64,000 nt of DNA from Limisphaerales bacterium (GCA_965204945.1 OZ242022.1:4245591-4309590); one strand, 5' to 3'; shown: positions 3,698-20,452, numbered from the stretch's first letter. The notes: generated by a model from the sequence alone, not told the origin. Numbers and translations: made by a program.

Positions 3698-4058
3698 TTA
3701 GTCAAGGGCGGCCGGGCTTAAACTGGAGTCAGTGCCGCTGGTGTTATAGGCTTTGTGATACAATGCGTTGGCTTTGGCGTCGATGCTGCGGCCTTCTGTT
3801 TTCGTACCTGAGTCGTCGTAGGAATAATTTCGTTCGTAATATTCTCGGTTGAGGTAAAGCCATCCGTCAGGTTGCGCATAGGCGGTTTTCTGGAGTTTTT
3901 TTGGAGAACGCAGCATTGAGCGCCTTGTTGAGTACGTATCCGGCAAAGAATTTCACGAAGAAATCTCCGGATTTTGTGGCAAGGATGGGGACGAAGAAGG
4001 CCTCATGCGTTCTTTGATGATAGAAAACGCCGGTAGCAGTGATTGCGAGAGTGGCCAC
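3698..4058 (-). pseudogene. Hypothetical ~119-aa protein split into two frames at an A7 run
   Basis: ORFs 3867..4058 and 3698..3946 overlap. They join as ...NAAFSKK/LQKTAYAQPDGW... if the A7 run (T7 on + strand, 3896..3902) is read as A6. Confidence 0.3.
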
Positions 4059-4617
4059 TAGGGCGGTTTTCTTGCGCTAGTTCCATTGATTGAGCCGTTG
4101 GCGTAGAGGATGGAGTTTCGCTGACAAGCGAGAGACTGCGTTGACGGCGAGCATTTCAACCTTCCACAGGATGTCTTCCGGCCAGCGCAGGAACCAAGGT
4201 GTCTTCTTCGCATTCATTTCATTGTTAGGATTATCTTGACCGATTCGAGAGGAATTGTTAAGTGAGTTTTTGCTGTTTAATGGCGCCACAATACAGATTT
4301 CTTTATCGGTTCGTGTCGTTTATTCCGCAATTCGGGTCGATGAAACACACCCTAAGCACCGATCCCGAAACACCCATCCACTAACTTGCTAATTACAAAT
4401 CGAAAATATTAAACCACAAAGCACTGGCCGCTGATTTGCCAGCGCAGGAACTAGCCGGCTATATGTCACTGAGCCGTGGATCCCCGCAAATACCCGGCTG
4501 TTGGAGGAGGCAGACGAATCCACAAATCACAAGATACCGGCCACGAAGCTATGGTGGTTTGTCGTTTTTGTCGCTTGCCGCACAAACAGCCAAAAAATCC
4601 GCATCGCTAAACCGAAT

Positions 4618-5383
4618 CTACGAAGTTGCGGCGGCTTGGCGGCGTTGTTTCTTTTGCATCTTTTGGAAGTGGCGGCGGAGAATGACAAAACCCAAAGCAA
4701 ACAAGCCGAATACAAGGGCATATTCCTCCGGCTCGGGGATGGTGGCGCTGTGGAAGCGCAAAGTCACTCCACTCCCCGCAAAGTTCGGGTTCAGATTCGC
4801 CCAGTTGTTCACATTCCCGGTAACAAAATCGCTAACCGGCTTGTTTATTAACAAACCCGATCCCGTCCAAGAAGACGCCTGCCCACTATAACTCCCATAG
4901 TTGAAACCGCTGCTCACCCGAATGCCAATGTTGTCGGCGGAAGTCACATCGTTCATAAACATCCGATTAATCGTGCGGTTGACGGGCGTCGTGCCGATGG
5001 TGATGGTCGGCGTGTTGGTGGCGTTGTTGGCAAAAGGAGACCCCGAGCCCCAAACTCCCGCTATTCTATTACTCACCGACACGATGTCTTTGGAGTTGGA
5101 ACTGGAAAAGAGGGGAGAGAGCGTGATGGTTTGGTTGGAAGGCTTGTTGGCGTTGTAAATGTTGCTGGCCGTCTGCCAACCATCGGCGCTAGAAGCGTTG
5201 CCGCTGGTGCGCAGCGTGCCGGCGGCGCCGACACTGGAGCTGCCGCTAAAAATCCAGATGCTGTTGGTGGGGGTATCCTGGCTGGGATAGACGTCAATGA
5301 TCAACTGCGCTTGGGCGTTGCCCCCCCCCCCCCCCCCCGCAAATGCAGGCGATGGCGGCCAATAAGGGTAGTTTTCGTTTCAT
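4618..5383 (-). CDS. PEP-CTERM sorting-domain protein; signal peptide and body are in different frames across a poly-G tract
   Basis: C-terminus is IPEPEEYALVFGLFALGFVILRR plus a basic tail, which is the PEP motif, a TM helix and an Arg cluster. The body is Ser/Gly/Asn/Thr-rich. The ATG at 5383 encodes MKRKLPLLAAIACIC, followed by G18. The body frame reads GNAQAQLIIDV... (AXA cleavage-like). Confidence 0.75.
5321..5338 (-). repeat. Homopolymer G18 (C18 on + strand) inside the 5' end of the PEP-CTERM gene
   Basis: Counted directly: C at 5321..5338. Confidence 0.95.
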
Positions 5384-5995
5384 AAGAATCTAGTTCGCTG
5401 TCAAAAATCTCTTTGTTTCTAATCGCTCCGCCGCAACAAGTCAAGCACCAAAATCACAAAAAGAGAAAAAAGTTAAGAAAAATTCTTTGGAAAACGGCAA
5501 AATCCGCTCATTCAAGCGCGAAAAAGAGGAATTCGCTGAGGAATGGGCGAGCCAAAGCTGGTTTTGGCGCGAATTGGGGGAGAGTGCAAAACAAGGAAAC
5601 CCTCAAAAAACGCGCAAATTCCATCTTGCTGTTAGCCAAGCGCCTCCTTGCTGTTGCAGGAAAAAGAAAGCTTTGGAGGCGGTTGGCCATCCAATCGACG
5701 CATTGGCTTTCACTGAATCAGCAAGGATGGAAGAGGCAAGAGGCGACGGCGGCCAAGCGGCAAGGCGGATTGGCTTGCGGGATTAGCGGTTGCCGTTCGT
5801 TTGTGGTCATGATTTCTTCTTCCACGGTCAAGTGATGAATAGGATCTCGCTGGCGGGATGGTTGAGTCAGAGCCGATGGCGGCGCGGTTTGCTTGGCTGG
5901 CGCGCATTTGCTGGCTTTTGAAGAGTTGGAAGGAATTTTCTCATGATTGGTTGGGGGCGCTTTTCTCTTCGATTGACCGGTTCGTCGTCTTCGTG

Positions 5996-12386: not shown

Positions 12387-13028
12387 ATGCAAAAAATACG
12401 CATTCCTCAAACACCGCCTGAATGGCAGGAATTAATGACCAAGTTAAAGCCGGCGAAAGGGCTGGTCGAGATTCTTTCCCAAATCCAGAACAGCAAAACG
12501 CGAGATTCCTATTTGCATTGGGACGAATTAAGGCATAAAACGCCGCCGCCCGGCATCAGTCACCACGAATGGTGGTTTGGGGTGAAGCTCTCCCGATTTT
12601 GAACAACTACTTAACGATGGAGAGAATTCAAGAACTCAAATCCTCGCCGCTCACTCGGGATCTGGTTTTTGAAATTCACAAACTTGTAACGGAAAAAACT
12701 TTGAACGACCCAACTGCCTCGGGGAGGTTTCGTCGACCGGACGAAGTGATAGAAGTCGGAAACGATTACGGGAATGTTTACCACTCACCGCCCCCAGCAG
12801 AGGAACTCTCCAAACGCATGAAACAAATGTGGGCTTTTGCTAACGCTACACCTTTGCCAGCCTGCCATGAGTCACAAAGTCGCACCGCTAACCGCGCGGA
12901 CGGACTTGATGAAGTTGGGCCAACGAGGCCTGCTCAAGAGAGGAAAAAACGGCAGAAGAATCGTCTTTTTTGCTCCCGCTGACTTATCCTCACGATTAAA
13001 AAAACTTCCGGAGAAAATGGCGAAATAA
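12387..13028 (+). pseudogene. Fic-family protein remnant: three frames, two internal deletions, HPFxDGNGR core missing
   Basis: The N-terminal segment reads YLHWDELRHKTPPPGISHHEWWFGVKLSR. The middle segment reads ILNNYLTMERIQELKSSPLTRDLVFEIHKLVTEKTLNDPTASGRFR...HSPPPAEELSKRMKQMWAFANA. The C-terminal wHTH segment reads SHKVAPLTARTDLMKLGQRGLLKRGKNGRRIVFFAP. Confidence 0.75.
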
Positions 13029-13099: not shown

Positions 13100-13175
13100 T
13101 GGTACTCCCGCCGGGACTCGAACCCAGATCGACGGTTTAGGAAACCGCTGCTCTATCCGCTTGAGCTACGGAAGC
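13100..13175 (-). tRNA. tRNA-Arg, anticodon CCU
   Basis: Hand-folded cloverleaf: GCTTCCG-TA-GCTC-AAGCGGATA-GAGC-A-GCGGT-TTCCTAA-ACCGT-CGAT-CTGGG-TTCGAGT-CCCGG-CGGGAGT-A-CCA. Pair 1-72 is G-U. Confidence 0.85.
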
Positions 13176-13253: not shown

Positions 13254-15722
13254 TTAACGCCTCGGCGCAAGCGGGAATTTTTTCCCAGATCGAGTGGTAA
13301 TTTCAGAAGCGCGCCGAGAAAATGTGAGTTTCACGGCACCGTCTACGCCGGTGAAGAGGACTTGGACGTTTTTAGAACGAAAATGACGACGGATGGATCG
13401 GACCCAACGCTCGCCGTTTTGGTTGTGGCTTCCCGTGACGACAATCACTTGAGGCTCCAGTTGCCCAAGAACGTGCAAATTGGGCGGTTGGCGATCTGCC
13501 GGCAAACCAAGGCTGATAAAGTCCGCCTTCAAATCAGGTTGCCGATTGAGGAGTTCTTTTTGACTCTCGCGATTCAGGTCGGAGAGGAGGAGGATTTTCA
13601 AGCCGTGAAGCTCGCCAAAAAGCACCAAAGGAGCGCTATCGGCCGGGCTTGGGTCGTCGCCAGCGCGCGGATGAAGAATCTGCCAATCGCCGATTCGATC
13701 CTTGGCGGTTCGCTGGTGAATGGGAACGCCTTCGGCGCGGAGTTGTTGAATGAGGCCGCGATAAAAAGAAGACCGAAAGGCAAGCGGACTAATGACAACT
13801 TGGTCGGGAGGTTTTTGTTGGAAGAGTTGGGAAAGAGCTTCCAAATGCTGTTTGTCGCCGTGAGTCAGGAGGTGGTTTCGATAGCGGGCGCTCGGCGGTT
13901 GATTGCGCAGGAACGGCTCCAGAATGAAGGAGGAACACCACTTTGGCCTGCCGTCGATGAGCCAGTCGTTTTGAGCGCCGGGAGTGTCAATGCTAACCGC
14001 GTCGCCTCCGGGAATGGGAAGAATCGAAATGGTTGTGCGGTGTTTGCCGGCAAGGAAACTGTCGCCCAAAATTCCCAAAATGGCGGCGGCGCACGCAGCG
14101 ATAAAAATCTTTTTCCCGCGAGAAGGAGGCGCGAGAGCGAACGTTGCCAGAGCCAAGTAGTAAAGGAAAACACAAGACAGAGGCGGCCTTGAAATCTCGA
14201 ACCAAGCCAACGGCAAGCCGGCAGAGGTTTTGCAAGTTTTGATCATAATCGTCATCCAAAGCCAAGCGCTGGAGTTTGCCAACGACGCCACTGCGGGCGC
14301 CCATGCCGCCGTTGCCAAAGCAAGCCAAGCGCTCGCCATCACAAGAGGCGCCAAAAAAAGCACCAAAATAAAATTGACGAGCAGAGAAACCGGCGTGAAC
14401 AAATTGAAATACCACATGATGAGAGGGAGCGAGCCCAACCAAGCAATCGCGGAAACAGCGAAGCAACGGCCAATGTTCCCAATCCATCGGCGAGCGAACC
14501 GCCGCCAGTTCGATGGATAAGATTGGGGAACCAGTTCGTCATCGCGAAACCACGCTCTGCTCCAATCCACCAACGGTCGGCAAAAAACCACAATCGCGCT
14601 AACAATCACAAACGAAAGCTGAAAGCCCGGTTGGAAAACCTGAAGCGGATCCCAAAACAAAAGAAGCAACGCGGCCGCGCCAATGGAATTGAGAGACTCC
14701 GGCGGCCTCTTCCACATCCAGCCGAGAAGAATCACGCAAGCCATCGTAGTTGCCCGAACCGCGGAAGCGGGAAAACCAGTCACCGCAGTGTAAAACCAAA
14801 GGCAGGGAATGCATACCACTCCCATCCAGCGCCGAGGAATCCCGCAACATTTGGCCGCCAGCGCCAGCATAGTCGCAACCAACATCACGTGCAGGCCGCT
14901 AATCGCAAAGACGTGAAAAGTGCCCGATTGAACGAACGGTTTGCGCAGCTCGTTCGTCAATCCTGCGCGCCAACCGAGAACCATTGCCCAAATGAGCTGC
15001 GTCGATTCGTCTCTGCGAGGTTGTCCAATGGTCAACGCCCGTCGCGCCCAATCTTGAAAGCGAGAGGGAAGCGGCCGCGTCGTCATCGGTTCCAAAAGGC
15101 TCGCCTTCGAATTCCAATCCCGAATCGTCATCACATAGGGAATGCCTTGATAGCGGAGAATCTTGCGGAAATCGAACTGCCCTTCCACCAGAGATTGCCG
15201 GGGAGGGGCGAGGATTCCCGCCAACCGAATCCGTTGCCCCCGATGAACGCCGGCCATCGGCGCGGCGTTGACTTGAACGCGGACGCGTCCATAGGCCGTT
15301 TGCCAGCGCGACTGCAAACAGATGCGCGAAACCTTCAAGTCCAATTGAGTTTGAATCCGCTTGCTCGATGCGGAGTGGGAGACTCTGCTTTGCGGACGAG
15401 AAACAACGGTGCCTTCTATTTCGCAAAGCCGGGCGCGCTCACCGATGAGGAGACGAAGATCGTGAGGAAGCCTTATCGCCGTATGATGGCGGTGAAGAAA
15501 CCAGCCCAACAGCAACATAGCGCAGGCGATTCCAAGCAGGCGCGCCGGCAGACGAACGGCCAGCATTGTGCCAAGGAAAACAGCCAAAGCGCCGGCCAAG
15601 AGCCAAGGATTCAAAATGAATTCCCCAGCAAGGATGCCAAGAATCAGCAAGGCGGCGAGAAACGCGCAGGGACGCCTGCGGACTTCCAGTTCGGGAAAGA
15701 ATTTTGCGCCTTTTCCCGCCAT
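13254..15722 (-). CDS. comEC: DNA internalisation competence protein ComEC/Rec2 (TM domain plus metallo-beta-lactamase domain)
   Basis: 822 aa with many TM helices and a C-terminal LLTHGDKQH beta-lactamase-fold motif. Confidence 0.85.
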   Translation of the reverse strand: MAGKGAKFFPELEVRRRPCAFLAALLILGILAGEFILNPWLLAGALAVFLGTMLAVRLPARLLGIACAMLLLGWFLHRHHTAIRLPHDLRLLIGERARLCEIEGTVVSRPQSRVSHSASSKRIQTQLDLKVSRICLQSRWQTAYGRVRVQVNAAPMAGVHRGQRIRLAGILAPPRQSLVEGQFDFRKILRYQGIPYVMTIRDWNSKASLLEPMTTRPLPSRFQDWARRALTIGQPRRDESTQLIWAMVLGWRAGLTNELRKPFVQSGTFHVFAISGLHVMLVATMLALAAKCCGIPRRWMGVVCIPCLWFYTAVTGFPASAVRATTMACVILLGWMWKRPPESLNSIGAAALLLLFWDPLQVFQPGFQLSFVIVSAIVVFCRPLVDWSRAWFRDDELVPQSYPSNWRRFARRWIGNIGRCFAVSAIAWLGSLPLIMWYFNLFTPVSLLVNFILVLFLAPLVMASAWLALATAAWAPAVASLANSSAWLWMTIMIKTCKTSAGLPLAWFEISRPPLSCVFLYYLALATFALAPPSRGKKIFIAACAAAILGILGDSFLAGKHRTTISILPIPGGDAVSIDTPGAQNDWLIDGRPKWCSSFILEPFLRNQPPSARYRNHLLTHGDKQHLEALSQLFQQKPPDQVVISPLAFRSSFYRGLIQQLRAEGVPIHQRTAKDRIGDWQILHPRAGDDPSPADSAPLVLFGELHGLKILLLSDLNRESQKELLNRQPDLKADFISLGLPADRQPPNLHVLGQLEPQVIVVTGSHNQNGERWVRSIRRHFRSKNVQVLFTGVDGAVKLTFSRRASEITTRSGKKFPLAPRR

Positions 15723-16028
15723 ATTGCGGGCAGTGGTAGGATGCTCAAAAAGAAGCCAACAAACGCGGATAAGGGATTAAACAAGAGCCAAACGAGCGAC
15801 GACCGCCGCCGCTTGACTTTGCTTTCTCAAGCGGTTGTTTCCATAGATAGCCGAGTGCGTTGTGTGCGTTCATGGTGTAATTACTTCTAATAGGACTGTT
15901 TCTCTTATGGATTTTTCTATATTGTTTAATTTCCTCACCGTCGTTTGGGTAACTAATGCCGAGACTTCAATCCCTTTGATTGTTTCGCAGATAGCAGTTC
16001 TATTTTAAATTCTTCTTTTATTGTCATT

Positions 16029-18755
16029 TCAAAAGAGTTCTGGGTTGGTTGGTTCTGAATTAGCGTGGTAACGCTTGCCAGTGACCATTGGCTCTTGGGC
16101 GAGCAAGTGCCGGGCTTTTATACATAAATTTTCATCAAAGCCGGTGTGTTTGCAAACGGCTTTGTCTATCTCTATCTGCACGTGGCAATTATGCGCTTCG
16201 GGCAATCGTTTGCGCGGCTGTTTACACCATTCATCATAAACCTCCGCTAACGCATGAAACGCAGACGGCTTCATGCCAAATAATAAGGGCATCGGAATGC
16301 GGTTGAAATTTTCTGTTGGAAATTGAACATAAGAAATATCTCTGTTCGCTCTTGCTAATATCATTCCCACTTTGGCGGGCGTGCTATTGAGGAGGAGGCA
16401 GACGGCTTTCTCCACCGTCTCTTTATCCACATCGGGGATGTTCACCACAACTTCGGCGCTATACCACTCACTTCCAACTGATGAGATAGTAGTTCGGCAG
16501 GCAAAGTTTTTGATGGTTGTCAATCGGACTCGTTCAGAAATTTTCAATCGGCTAGCTTTTTGCAAAGCATTGACAAAATTCGGTTTGTCTTTCTTTGGTT
16601 TTACATGGCAGTCCGGCTTGACTTCCATTTTATCGCAGTAGTTGGTTTTGTGCGAGTATAGGCAAGGCGTGGCGTGCATCTCTCTGGGATCGCATTTTTG
16701 CGCGCCAATCCTAATAATTGCTCCCCTCGTTTTGATCTTGACTTGATCCTCTAAAGTGCTTGTCCAGTATGTTGGGATTTCTAAGGCGATGCGATAGAGT
16801 TCGTTGCTGAGAAACTGCGTGGCGCTCCAATCTCCCTTTGCCATGTTTGCCGGGCTGATGTTATCCACTTCGCCCCATTCCTGTCCTTCTCCGTCTAAGA
16901 TTTGGCTGGCGCATTGCACGGCATCCCATTCGGTGGCCGGATTGTCGGCCAACTTGATGACTTTGGTTGGCCTTGGAGTCTTCTTTTTGCGCTCCAAAAC
17001 TAATAGCATTTCGCTAATGCTCGTGTTGCCTGAGAAGAAGGTTCGCGTTGGATCATAAGAAACGATGATGTATTGGATATGAAAGTGTTTAGGCAACCAG
17101 ATTCGAGCGTCATAAGATGACACACCAGATGTAATTGTAGATGGCAAGACGATGCCCGCTTTGCCGGTTTTCGGGTCAATGTATTTATGGGTTAGCGGAA
17201 TGAATGCTGTCGAGTTGCCAGCCGCAGTCATCGCCGGGTTGATTTGCCGAAAATATCTCTCTCTTTCCCGCAGTTTTTTCTGCACTTCTGGTTTCTTATG
17301 TTTGTTCCTTTTCTCTCTGATCGTATAAGGCGGATTCATAATGGCGAAGTCAAACTTATCGCATTCCAGTTTTTGCTCCGGGCTGTCTAGCTTTTTAGCA
17401 ATGATCGGCGGATTGAAGACTAGATCATCCATTCCTCGCAGCATTTCTAGCGAGCCTAATCGGGCTTCGGTTTCTCCTTCCGGGACGCCGAGCATCATGC
17501 TTCGCAGTTGGGTGTTTTCAAATTTTACGCCGGGGGCGATCATTCCCAATCCGGCGGCGGTTTGGAAGACGGCGCGGTTGTTAATGTCAAAGCCATAGAG
17601 CATTTGCTCGAATAAGGCTTTGGCTACTTCGGGGTTCTGCTTTGTCTTTTGCAGGATGTAGTTGGCGCAAGCAATCAATAACGTTCCAGAACCGCAGGCA
17701 AAGTCCACGATGCGCAGGTTTTTGACTTGGTCGAGGTTTTTCCATTTGATGTTCGCTTTATGGAACATCAGGTGCGTTAGCATAGTGGCGGCGGGGAGAG
17801 TGGTATACATGGCTCCTTCCTGCTTAGCGGCCGCTATGGAGTTGCAAAAGCTGATGCCCACGAGGTCGTGGTGATGCGCGCCTTTGGCGCTCTGAATATC
17901 GTGGGCGGTTTGCGCAAGCCTTTTGACGGCGTCGTTGCTGCGATGACTGACAGTCAATGCTTTCAGGATGGCGCAGTTCCATTCTAATATGTCTTTGTAA
18001 TCCACATCCAGCCATTTGGCGTAGGCGTCCTTGAGGCTGGCGATGATGTTTTCGGAGTCGATGCACTCTTGCAATGTTGGCGGGCGGGCGGCTTTTTTGC
18101 GGAATTGGGGGATGAGGTGGATGATGTCGTCTAGTTTGGTATGGAACATGAAGACGGTCAGCAAATCGATCAGCAATCCTTGGAAGTCGGTTTCCGCCGC
18201 CGCTTCGCCGAGTTTATGCATGATAGAGTCGGCGTTTTCGGAGAGCTTTTGGAAGGCTTCGTGGACGGCGATTTCAGCGTCTTTGGCTAGGTCTTCCGGT
18301 TGGCCGAGTTCGCTGGGAAGGCTTCGGATGAGGGCGGGCAAGTCTTTGACGTCGTAGTCTTTCCATTTTTTCCATTTTGGCGACTTCTGCTTGCTGCGGA
18401 TGCGGAGCGGCGTTCGCACGGAAACTCTCACCTTTCCATGTTCAAGGTGGTCTTGGTTTTCAATCTGGTCGGGATAGATGAGAGCGAGGGCGCCGTCGCA
18501 GAAGCGTTTGCCGGCTTTGTTGAAGATTAGCTCGTCGGCTTGGCGGACGGAGGCTTGTTTGTTGGCGCCCAGTTTGATACCCCAACCGCGTTTGGCCTCG
18601 ATGCCGATGGTGTAGCCTTGGACGTCGAAACAGACAAGGTCGACTAATCGTCGTTTGCCTTTGTCGTATTTGAAGGGGTGTTCGACTCCCGTTTTGATTC
18701 CCGCTTTCCGCAGGATCTCAGCGAGGTAAGCAGTCAATGCATTTTCGTTAGCCAT
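16029..18755 (-). CDS. Fused PD-(D/E)xK nuclease / gamma-class N6-adenine DNA methyltransferase / putative target-recognition region (type IIG, MmeI-like layout, 908 aa)
   Basis: N-terminus is VEHP...RRLVDLVCFDVQGYTIGIEAKRG, an E..D..ExK pattern. Motif I is RIVDFACGSGTLLIACANYI and motif IV is FDFAIMNPPYT. About 400 aa of C-terminal sequence is unassigned. Confidence 0.75.
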   Translation of the reverse strand: MANENALTAYLAEILRKAGIKTGVEHPFKYDKGKRRLVDLVCFDVQGYTIGIEAKRGWGIKLGANKQASVRQADELIFNKAGKRFCDGALALIYPDQIENQDHLEHGKVRVSVRTPLRIRSKQKSPKWKKWKDYDVKDLPALIRSLPSELGQPEDLAKDAEIAVHEAFQKLSENADSIMHKLGEAAAETDFQGLLIDLLTVFMFHTKLDDIIHLIPQFRKKAARPPTLQECIDSENIIASLKDAYAKWLDVDYKDILEWNCAILKALTVSHRSNDAVKRLAQTAHDIQSAKGAHHHDLVGISFCNSIAAAKQEGAMYTTLPAATMLTHLMFHKANIKWKNLDQVKNLRIVDFACGSGTLLIACANYILQKTKQNPEVAKALFEQMLYGFDINNRAVFQTAAGLGMIAPGVKFENTQLRSMMLGVPEGETEARLGSLEMLRGMDDLVFNPPIIAKKLDSPEQKLECDKFDFAIMNPPYTIREKRNKHKKPEVQKKLRERERYFRQINPAMTAAGNSTAFIPLTHKYIDPKTGKAGIVLPSTITSGVSSYDARIWLPKHFHIQYIIVSYDPTRTFFSGNTSISEMLLVLERKKKTPRPTKVIKLADNPATEWDAVQCASQILDGEGQEWGEVDNISPANMAKGDWSATQFLSNELYRIALEIPTYWTSTLEDQVKIKTRGAIIRIGAQKCDPREMHATPCLYSHKTNYCDKMEVKPDCHVKPKKDKPNFVNALQKASRLKISERVRLTTIKNFACRTTISSVGSEWYSAEVVVNIPDVDKETVEKAVCLLLNSTPAKVGMILARANRDISYVQFPTENFNRIPMPLLFGMKPSAFHALAEVYDEWCKQPRKRLPEAHNCHVQIEIDKAVCKHTGFDENLCIKARHLLAQEPMVTGKRYHANSEPTNPELF

Positions 18756-19154
18756 TTACTGTTTCTGTTCGCGCCGCGACTCTTCCTCCACGGTCGCCAT
18801 TCTTGCCGCCTCGGCTTGTTGTTGGATTGCTTGGTGGTTTGCTTGCTGTTGTTGGGCGAATGCTATGTTGGCTAATTCTTCCGGCGTAGGATGAGGCAGA
18901 GGAACAGCGGGCGCAGGATCGGGGTCGGGATAGGGCGACGGTTCGGTGGTGGCCGTTGCCCCCATTTCTTGCATTATTCGGGCGTATTCGGTAGCCTTGG
19001 CTTGCTCTCGTTCGGCTCGCCGTTGTCTGCGAGAATTCCCTTGGTGCTTGTCCGGATGCCAGATGGAAACCAAGTCTCGCCAAGCCTCCTGCGCTTCTGA
19101 AAGAGACGCATTCCTGCTTAATTCAAGCGTTTGATATGCCTCGTCTAGTGTCAT
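18756..19154 (-). CDS. J-domain (DnaJ-like) protein, 132 aa, with a Pro/Gln-rich tail
   Basis: MTLDEAYQTLELSRNASLSEAQEAWRDLVSIWHPDKHQGN contains the HPD tripeptide. Its TAA stop (18758..18756) is directly followed by the ATG (18755) of the methyltransferase gene. Confidence 0.8.
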   Translation of the reverse strand: MTLDEAYQTLELSRNASLSEAQEAWRDLVSIWHPDKHQGNSRRQRRAEREQAKATEYARIMQEMGATATTEPSPYPDPDPAPAVPLPHPTPEELANIAFAQQQQANHQAIQQQAEAARMATVEEESRREQKQ

Positions 19155-19273
19155 TTCAGTTCAGTTCGTATCGTTAAGTTGGCTTCGCAAGTGGCAGAAA
19201 CTTTGCCCGACTGGATAAGGTCAAGGATGGCTTGCTCGTTGTTTGTTGTGCTTGCAGGCACGGCGGCGTGTTT

Positions 19274-20452
19274 TTAGCGGGTTCCCATGCCGACGCTTTG
19301 GACGGTTTGAAAGAGTTTGCCTTCGGTCTTGATGCTCGGCGCGATGATGATTTCGGTTTCCTGAAAAGCGCGGATGTCGGCGGCGCCGACGTTGCCCATG
19401 CAGGTTCGTATGGCGCCGACGAGGTTTTGAGATCCGTCGTCCACTTCGGCCGGGCCAAAGAGGATTTGCTCTAGTGTTCCGGTAATGCCCACCTTAATCC
19501 GTGTGCCTCGGGGGAGATTGGCGTGCGGAGTGGCCATTCCCCAGTGGTTGCCTTGTCCGGGCGCTTCCACCGTGCGGGCGAAGGCGCTGCCGACCATGAC
19601 GGCGTCCGCGCCGCAAGCTAAGGCTTTGCAAACGTCGCCTCCTTTGCTCATGCCGCCGTCGGTGATGATGGGCACGTAGCGGCCGCTTTTTTTGTGGTAG
19701 TAGTCGCGGGCGGCGGCGCAATCCACTGTGGCGGTGACTTGGGGAACGCCGAGACCAAGCACGCCTCGGCTGGTGCAGGCGGCTCCGGGACCGACCCCCA
19801 CAAGAACGCCCGCCACGCCGCGTTCCATCAGTTGAAGCGCCACATTGTAGGTGACGGCGTTGCCGATGATGACCGGAATGTTCATGTCTCGGCAAAAAGA
19901 AGCCAGATCCAAGGACTTGTATTTTGAGGAAATGTGACGGACGGTGGAAACAGTGGATTGAACCACGAAAATGTCCGCGCCAGATTCTTGGGCAATGGCG
20001 CCGTAGCGTTCGGCCTTTTGAGGAATGGCGCTGACGGCCGCCCAAACGCCGGTTTCTTTGATCTCGGCGATTCGTTTGCGGATCAGCTCTTCTTTGATAG
20101 GTTCGGCGTAGAGTTTTTGTATCAGCGAAGTAACGCTGTCTTGATCGGCGTTGACCACTTGCGCCAGCGCTCCGGAGGGATTTTCGTAGCGGGTTTGAAT
20201 TCCTTCCAGATTGATGACGCCAATGCCGCCCAAGTTGCCCATGACTTGGCAAAAGCGCACGTCGGTGACGCCGTCCATTGCGCTGGCGAGAATGGGGATT
20301 TTGAGGAGAATGCCTCCGCCGTCTTTGGTCGGAATCCGAAAACTAGTGTCCACTTCTTCCGGATTGATCGTGACTTCCCCCGGCACGAGGGCAATCTCGT
20401 CGAACCCGTAGGTGACGCGGGCTTTTCGATTGCGGCCAATCCACATTCCCAT
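19274..20452 (-). CDS. IMP dehydrogenase-related protein lacking CBS domains (GuaB3-like)
   Basis: [10 protein letters not shown]...[11 protein letters not shown]...[11 protein letters not shown]...[27 protein letters not shown]. Confidence 0.8.

Follow-up and report, generated by a model that had tools for sequence, protein, structure and literature searches.

A predicted type IIG-like enzyme and an adjoining J-domain open reading frame in a Limisphaerales genome

The stretch of DNA analysed in the present study (the window) comprises 64,000 nt from a Limisphaerales bacterium (GCA_965204945.1 OZ242022.1:4245591-4309590). A gene for a 908-aa protein with the layout of a type IIG-like restriction-modification enzyme is directly preceded there by a 132-aa open reading frame (ORF) encoding a J domain, and the two genes stand between a gene of the IMPDH/GMP-reductase family and comEC (Table 1). 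The original prediction, made from the sequence of the window, had given the coordinates of both ORFs exactly and had named both neighbours correctly, as the ORF calls and Pfam searches confirmed; it had read the pair as a possible chaperone-coupled defence module. Among the known classes of restriction-modification systems, none, to our knowledge, comes with an Hsp70 co-chaperone as a built-in partner. The idea would be novel if true, although the comparative evidence speaks against it, and chaperone-gated restriction would then represent a very young system caught at birth. Considering all the results described below, the locus probably holds a solitary type IIG-like enzyme, the activities of which are read from its architecture, together with a recent and incidental J-domain insertion that lies outside the enzyme mechanism.

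Table 1. Coordinates of the features at the locus, counted from the first letter of the window
Feature	Coordinates	Strand	Basis
Gene for the 908-aa enzyme (nuclease, helical spacer, N6-adenine methyltransferase and target-recognition region; type IIG-like)	16029..18755	-	ORF call, Pfam, AlphaFold2, Foldseek
Predicted PD-(D/E)xK nuclease domain, ~residues 1-135; catalytic candidates E4, D39, E53-x-K55	18351..18755	-	Fold and conservation
All-helical spacer/coupling domain, ~residues 136-305, boundaries approximate	17841..18350	-	DSSP on the model (helices 136-306)
Gamma-class N6-adenine methyltransferase domain, ~residues 306-600; motif I VDFACGSGTLL, motif IV NPPY	16956..17840	-	Pfam PF02384
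C-terminal region, putative target-recognition domain, ~residues 601-908	16029..16955	-	Structural alignment
Mosaic (apparently recombinant) 3' half, residues 451-908	16029..17405	-	Identity drop and GC content
132-aa J-domain ORF; J domain ~residues 1-65, then Pro/Gln-rich tail	18756..19154	-	ORF call, Pfam DnaJ
Last ~18-20 nt of the J ORF, apparent homologue of the enzyme's ancestral 5' leader (...GCAAAGACAAAGCA-ATG in orthologues)	18756..18775	-	Junction comparison
514-nt segment, present in the window and L081, missing at four syntenic orthologues; interpreted as an insertion	18757..19270	-	blastn, junction comparison
3' flank of the enzyme gene, conserved with orthologous loci	15900..16028	-	Alignment by eye
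IMPDH/GMP-reductase-family gene; upstream neighbour, outside the system	19274..20452	-	Pfam PF00478, E 1.8e-53
comEC; downstream neighbour, outside the system	13254..15722	-	Pfam Competence PF03772, E 3.6e-53, and DUF4131

Architecture of the 908-aa protein

The AlphaFold2 model of the 908-aa protein, built from a 97-sequence alignment, had a predicted local distance difference test (pLDDT) score of 87 and a predicted template modelling (pTM) score of 0.84. When the full-length model was compared with the PDB using Foldseek, the best match was the type IIG enzyme BpuSI (3S1S; E 6e-17, ~1000 aligned columns), and the other top matches included CamA, M.BseCI, DrdV and the BREX methylase PglX. 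At the level of sequence, a profile search of the PDB with the same protein reached methylase motifs only, so that the comparison of folds was needed. Furthermore, no Pfam domain was matched, even at E-values up to 10, by the N-terminal 200-300 aa or by the C-terminal 309 aa.

Modelled alone, the N-terminal 160 aa (pLDDT 88) adopted an alpha-beta-beta-beta-alpha-beta fold, with helices at residues 4-17 and 62-77 and strands at residues 21-31, 34-45, 48-56 and 88-94. The Foldseek matches listed for this model were predominantly PD-(D/E)xK nucleases, including Cas4 SSO0001, MGME1, NucS/EndoMS, AF1548, the R2 endonuclease domain, Hjc, the DrdV nuclease domain, lambda exonuclease and PspGI, with modest E-values of 6e-3 to 0.2 and probabilities up to 0.99. 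The candidate catalytic residues E4, D39 and E53 were invariant in 96/96 covering homologues of the 97-sequence alignment, the mean column identity of which was 40%, and this invariance argues for a catalytically constrained nuclease. In the full-length structural alignment, the helical spacer that follows occupied the position of the helical domain of BpuSI/DrdV-type enzymes.

The methyltransferase of the original prediction proved to be real: the N6_Mtase model (PF02384) matched residues 308-599 with an E-value of 6e-13, both of its predicted motifs, VDFACGSGTLL and NPPY, are present, and the Eco57I Pfam model gave a weak match. D351, A353, C354, G355, G357, N474, P475 and P476 were invariant in the 97 sequences, as was NPP[F/Y]. 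The methylase and the C-terminus superposed on CamA and M.BseCI, which consist of a methylase and a recognition domain, with target-normalised TM scores of 0.63-0.71. An endonuclease fold and an N6_Mtase domain are thus combined within a single polypeptide, encoded by one ORF, and the predicted fusion of a nuclease and a methyltransferase in a type IIG-like layout is supported by the fold, the domain order and the conservation of catalytic residues. The neighbourhood survey covered 79 homologue loci with 6 kb of flank on either side, in which ORFs of at least 40 aa were searched, and clustering of the neighbour ORFs gave no recurrent specificity gene. Judging from its architecture, the 908-aa protein is most likely a solitary, single-polypeptide restriction-modification enzyme of the type IIG architecture.

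BpuSI shares with the 908-aa protein the order of an N-terminal PD-(D/E)xK nuclease, a helical domain, a gamma-class N6-adenine methyltransferase and a C-terminal recognition domain, and is about as large, with 870 aa in the chain that matched. However, the two were 12% identical in the structural alignment, no sequence-level relationship was detectable outside the methylase motifs, and the global TM score was 0.35, indicating that the domains are differently arranged in the model. The DrdV/MmeI-type single-chain enzymes (PDB 7LVV, 7LO5) have the same architecture; the nuclease domain of DrdV matches the isolated N-terminal domain, and full-length DrdV was among the top structural matches. MmeI, at 919 aa, is also close in length. 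Membership of the MmeI family by sequence was nevertheless ruled out, since the only match was to MmeI_Mtase, which scored 17.1 bits (cut-off 27 bits) over 22 residues, and none of the MmeI_N, helical, recognition-domain and C-terminal models appeared in a Pfam scan up to an E-value of 0.1. The label 'MmeI' given in the original prediction was thus too specific. CamA and M.BseCI (PDB 7LNI, 7QW5) are gamma-class N6-adenine methyltransferases with a C-terminal recognition domain, and this part superposes well; their chains of ~540-580 aa aligned over ~640 columns and left the N-terminal ~300 aa of the 908-aa protein uncovered. Both lack a nuclease and a helical spacer, and the 908-aa protein differs from them by these extra 300 aa with conserved catalytic residues.

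The same comparisons bear on a second reading, in which the 908-aa protein would be an orphan or regulatory methyltransferase, or a methylase subunit resembling BREX PglX or MADS MAD2, with a non-catalytic N-terminal domain. CamA and M.BseCI are strong structural matches for the methylase and recognition part and lack nuclease activity, and weak sequence matches were obtained to the PglX and MAD2 models and to PglX structures. Position 55 of the nuclease domain, which is K in 52/96 and E in 44/96 homologues, also favours this reading and counts against restriction, although the window protein itself has K. A variant of the ExK motif with ExE, as found in BamHI, is known to be active. Membership of the BREX PglX and MADS MAD2 families was rejected, with scores of 48.3 bits against 720 for MAD2 and of 16-22 bits against 500-900 for the BREX-1/5/6 PglX models (NCBIfam). 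Furthermore, no BREX or MADS partner genes stand nearby, where the neighbours are housekeeping genes, and no other neighbour is recurrent. Considering also the invariance of E4, D39 and E53 and the bona fide type IIG enzyme that is the best full-length match, we regard a non-restricting methylase, or a subunit of a larger system, as unlikely.

Family members, gene copies and the mosaic 3' half

The 908-aa protein belongs to a family that is conserved over its full length, with at least 290 proteins at E<=1e-3, most of them ~900 aa long and none of them named by its source; a genome scan returned 554 relatives. The family occurs in Verrucomicrobiota, Chloroflexota, Bacteroidota and Latescibacterota and, distantly, in many archaea. 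It is old and broad, and it is without a characterised member. The distant relatives (L017-L079) were 22-31% identical to the window protein, several of them aligning over nearly the whole query, and came from archaeal metagenome-assembled genomes (MAGs) of Bathyarchaeia, Sulfolobales, Desulfurococcales and Njordarchaeota and from Chloroflexota. Relatives at 39-47% identity (L004, L005, L007, L009, L010, L012 and L013) came from MAGs of Dehalococcoidia, Latescibacterota, Rhodothermales and Bacteroidota. Isolate names such as Plut_, RHO3_, SB0665_ and Poribacteria point to sponge or coral hosts, the habitat being read from the names only. There is a hint here of cross-phylum transfer of the enzyme gene within one habitat.

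Related Limisphaerales genomes carry 3-5 copies of the gene each, at unrelated loci and squeezed tightly between housekeeping genes. Two Limisphaerales chromosomes, OZ241891.1 and OZ251460.1, hold the copies L001-L003, L006, L008, L011 and L014-L016, some of which have decayed. A frameshift interrupts L011, L015 stops short at residue 585, only a fragment is left at L016, and a second, partial copy lies in L008 at 13947..14726.

Comparison of the window protein with P0002, P0003 and P0004, the last of which is a paralogue in the window's own genome, gave 96-100% identity over residues 1-450. After residue 450, identity fell to 42-88%, except in two blocks near 100%. The GC content is 46.5% in the 3' half of the gene versus 53.2% in the 5' half (17406..18755), and the fit to the host codon usage is weaker in the 3' half than in the 5' half. 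The putative recognition region is part of this mosaic, variable and lower-GC half. These patterns suggest that specificity-bearing halves have been swapped by recombination between copies, and the C-terminal mosaicism and the presence of some pseudogene copies fit such a shuffling of specificity.

A 5' leader of ~25 nt (AAAAATTGCCGAGCAAAGACAAAAA-ATG) and a 3' flank of ~60 nt (TGACGAAAYGACAAAGAAAGAATTTCTCCATGGTTGTTGTCGGCGCAGGGCTGGGGAGA) are common to copies at different positions, as compared in L002/L008, L011/L084/L085 and window 15900..16028; the first ~25 nt of the window 3' flank resemble, by eye, the 3' flank of paralogues elsewhere. Because leader and 3' flank are shared across unrelated loci, the gene appears to travel as a minimal cassette. 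Among the neighbouring ORFs, which were not systematically annotated, no gene for a recombinase was conspicuous, and clustering of the neighbour ORFs in the 79 loci gave no recurrent partner gene of any kind. The neighbour clusters that did recur were rejected as partners; by their coordinates, they look like antisense ORFs over the enzyme gene or like lineage-specific synteny. A mobile two-gene unit of an IMPDH-like gene and the enzyme gene, considered for the Dehalococcoidia locus L009, was likewise rejected, as 3.6 kb and several intervening genes separate the IMPDH-like gene from the enzyme gene there.

The J-domain ORF and its junction with the enzyme gene

Four orthologous loci have the same order of IMPDH-like gene, methylase gene and comEC as the window, and their enzymes are 86% (L001) and 62% (L002) identical to the window protein in two genomes and 88% (L080) and 85% (L083) identical in two metagenomes. 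The IMPDH-like gene of L001 is 96.7% identical to that of L002, and the two are syntenic. In all four loci, the distance from the stop codon of the IMPDH-like gene to the ATG of the methylase gene is 25-26 nt, versus 518 nt in the window, and blastn collinearity with L001, L002 and L080 is broken exactly at window positions 19271 and 18756/18757. Among the ORFs of the 79 homologue loci, 0 were matched by phmmer with the J protein and 0 by a generic J-domain hidden Markov model (HMM) made from five canonical J domains. Furthermore, no J-domain ORF stands upstream of the enzyme in five further metagenomic loci, and L084 and L085, which are close homologues at other genomic positions, lack one. 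A J gene was thus found next to the enzyme gene in the window strain and in the 98%-identical strain L081 only. The original prediction had itself named a lack of co-occurrence between homologues and J-domain ORFs as refuting the pairing, and the survey gave this outcome. The independent assembly of L081, 98.0% identical over 4 kb, repeats the arrangement of J ORF and methylase gene, which therefore does not result from misassembly.

The J ORF and the enzyme ORF share one reading frame with a single TAA in between, and the abutted junction reads ...CAG TAA ATG GCT..., the stop codon of the J ORF lying at 18758..18756 and the ATG of the enzyme gene at 18755..18753. Read-through of the TAA would give a fusion of J domain and enzyme of 1041 residues; the TAA stands in both the window and L081, with no substitution there. 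The zero-spacer junction, originally taken as an argument for co-translation, is real as an exact abutment and appears to be a by-product of insertion rather than a sign of design. The 3' end of the J ORF matches the leader of the orthologues at ~11/18 positions (hand count), and this leader also precedes the paralogue at the unrelated locus L008. The TAA would abut the ATG because the inserted J ORF runs on into the old leader of the enzyme gene, ending one codon before the ATG. We infer from these comparisons that the indel was an insertion and not a deletion. Around the 514-nt segment, no target-site duplications, inverted repeats, promoters or terminators were found beyond chance.

Between the window and L081, the housekeeping flanks (the IMPDH-like gene and the genes upstream of it) differ by 2.0-3.2%. 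In contrast, only 4/1122 nt differ in window 18152..19273, which extends from the spacer through the J ORF to nt 604 of the enzyme gene. This low divergence indicates that the segment is young or has recently been exchanged or swept, and leaves too little variation for a test of selection on the J ORF.

The J protein matched Pfam DnaJ (PF00226) with an E-value of 1.7e-7 and 31.7 bits, above the cut-off of 27.8 bits, and has an HPD motif at residues 33-35. The match spans residues 6-44 only (profile positions 2-40 of 63), corresponding to helices I-II, the HPD motif and the start of helix III. The canonical J domain over ~65 residues of the original prediction thus held in that the domain is real and its HPD motif intact, and its extent was somewhat generous, as helix III departs from the consensus and helix IV is replaced by a Pro/Gln-rich tail. 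An exhaustive search of 1.84 billion representative proteins returned 857 J-domain proteins at E<=1e-3, with an E-value of 3.4e-12 for the top match apart from the protein itself; the relatives were 33-50% identical at best, with matches confined to the J domain. A word-indexed search of 5.8 billion proteins returned the J protein itself only. In these collections, the J protein is an orphan, and the exhaustive search gave only generic J domains at <=50% identity and no source of the ORF. Viral contigs yielded a single J domain, from a giant virus and 42% identical over 43 aa, which is not informative, and a PHROGs search gave nothing meaningful.

The nearest relatives of the J protein were small J-domain-only (class III/C) proteins with the consensus ...AYRDLVxVWHPDR..N.RL..KAE.K.K.INEAY... 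and variable, often Pro-rich tails. Helices I-II and the HPD motif of the J protein align with them at 33-50% identity, and it shares with them a short N-terminal J domain followed by such a tail. Unlike its subclass, the J protein has an altered helix III, with L replaced by R and I by A at core positions and a one-residue deletion in INEAY, and it is unique in its genomic position ahead of a restriction-modification gene. Controller (C) proteins are small ORFs directly upstream of a restriction gene, overlapping or abutting it, and the J ORF resembles them in its small size and its position directly upstream of the enzyme gene. However, Pfam and NCBIfam gave only J-domain-type matches for the J protein and no DNA-binding family, and the J ORF is not conserved with the enzyme family.

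Two further readings concern the J ORF itself. In the first, a lineage-specific chaperone coupling, the J protein would be co-translated with the enzyme and would recruit DnaK/Hsp70 to fold, gate or alleviate the nuclease, forming a new module in the window strain only. The intact HPD motif and above-threshold Pfam match, the coding-like frame and the in-frame abutment of TAA and ATG in two strains are consistent with this, as is the low divergence, relative to flanks differing by 2-3%, of the J segment together with the 5' end of the enzyme gene; these two seem to have spread as one unit. However, the J ORF is absent from the four syntenic orthologues and from all of the 79 and more homologue loci, and the enzyme family clearly works without it. 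In addition, the J protein lacks relatives at more than 50% identity, has lost core residues of helix III and has a low-complexity tail in place of any client-binding domain; no PADLOC model matches it, and the term 'J-domain' was absent from the 12 top-ranked of 534 papers matching a search for J domains in restriction or defence. Chaperone coupling is thus very improbable, and the predicted chaperone-coupled defence module is not supported, given the absence of the J ORF from orthologues and homologues and the orphan status of its product.

In the second reading, which is compatible with an incidental insertion, the J ORF would be a dead relic, that is, a fragment of a J-domain gene brought in by illegitimate recombination, untranslated and non-functional, and open because it is young. 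The orphan status of the protein, its degenerate helix III and missing helix IV, and the stop codon supplied by the old leader region are in line with such a relic, as is the fit of the J ORF to the host codon usage, which is weak (0.095 bits per codon versus 0.25-0.41 for the neighbouring genes). The substitutions are also too few to reveal purifying selection, and the 119-nt spacer upstream of the J ORF yielded no consensus promoter, though a scan for the sigma-70 consensus is of little value in Verrucomicrobiota. On the other hand, the HPD motif is intact, the frame is open and is the best of three by codon statistics, and many genuine small J-domain-only proteins with variable tails belong to the same subclass. 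A dead relic is thus a possibility to be taken seriously, if a doubtful one.

A scenario for the locus and its strain-variable slot

Considering these results together, we propose the following scenario for the enzyme and the J ORF of the window. If the protein works as BpuSI-, MmeI- and DrdV-type enzymes do, its C-terminal region may read a DNA site, the gamma-class methyltransferase may N6-methylate adenine in the host copies of this site using S-adenosylmethionine, and the N-terminal PD-(D/E)xK domain may cut unmodified incoming DNA. The enzyme gene would sit in a strain-variable slot, from the IMPDH-family gene to comEC, of a Limisphaerales (Verrucomicrobiota) genome, and the specificity-bearing C-terminal halves of this multi-copy family would be exchanged by recombination. 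The 514-nt segment with the J ORF may have been acquired recently by the window lineage, the ORF being derived from the common class of small J-domain-only proteins with helix III already diverged. The adjacency of the J ORF and the enzyme gene would be incidental, though the J ORF may still be transcribed and translated, and any effect on the expression of the enzyme, for example by termination-reinitiation at TAAATG, would arise as a by-product in the window strain alone. We infer that the J protein is without a function in the enzyme mechanism.

Several observations weigh against an incidental insertion. The 132-codon frame is open, its HPD motif is intact, it looks more like coding sequence than the other two frames do, and the sole substitution in the J ORF relative to L081 is synonymous; the J ORF may thus be expressed and functional. 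The exact in-frame abutment of TAA and ATG would fit translational coupling. The direction of the indel was read from parsimony and the apparent homology of the leader, not from a rooted phylogeny. Furthermore, the survey did not extend to the loci of P0004 and P0018, paralogues in the same genome (4.31 Mb), and a copy of the J ORF at P0004, the N-terminal 450 aa of which are identical to those of the window protein, is possible. A more specific variant, in which a captured J ORF has been wired by TAA-ATG termination-reinitiation to the type IIG enzyme and recruits DnaK to the nascent or mature enzyme in the window lineage only, is in our view a shade less probable still than chaperone coupling in general.

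Because the partnership with the J ORF is private to one strain cluster and recent, it does not amount to a new defence architecture, and the enzyme is best described as uncharacterised but ordinary and type IIG-like. The enzyme family could supply new restriction specificities, and it offers an example of single-gene restriction-modification cassettes diversifying inside a genome. For this uncharacterised family, the present analysis leaves a structural model of high confidence and a clear set of candidate catalytic residues.

In the orthologous locus L080 (PANK22-1_SAMN12290269 scaffold_2288), genes for a D12-class methylase and a HaeIII-like endonuclease (3803..5412) lie between the type IIG-like gene and comEC, so that the slot between the IMPDH-like gene and comEC varies between strains in its restriction-modification gene content. 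In the window, no mobility gene was seen near the pair, in agreement with the original prediction. Between valS and comEC, on the far side of comEC, short overlapping ORFs at 12387..13028 (+) and 13100..13175 (-) gave a sub-threshold match to Fic/DOC (E 9e-4) and look like a broken Fic-domain gene, and a tRNA-Arg (CCT) gene adjoins them.

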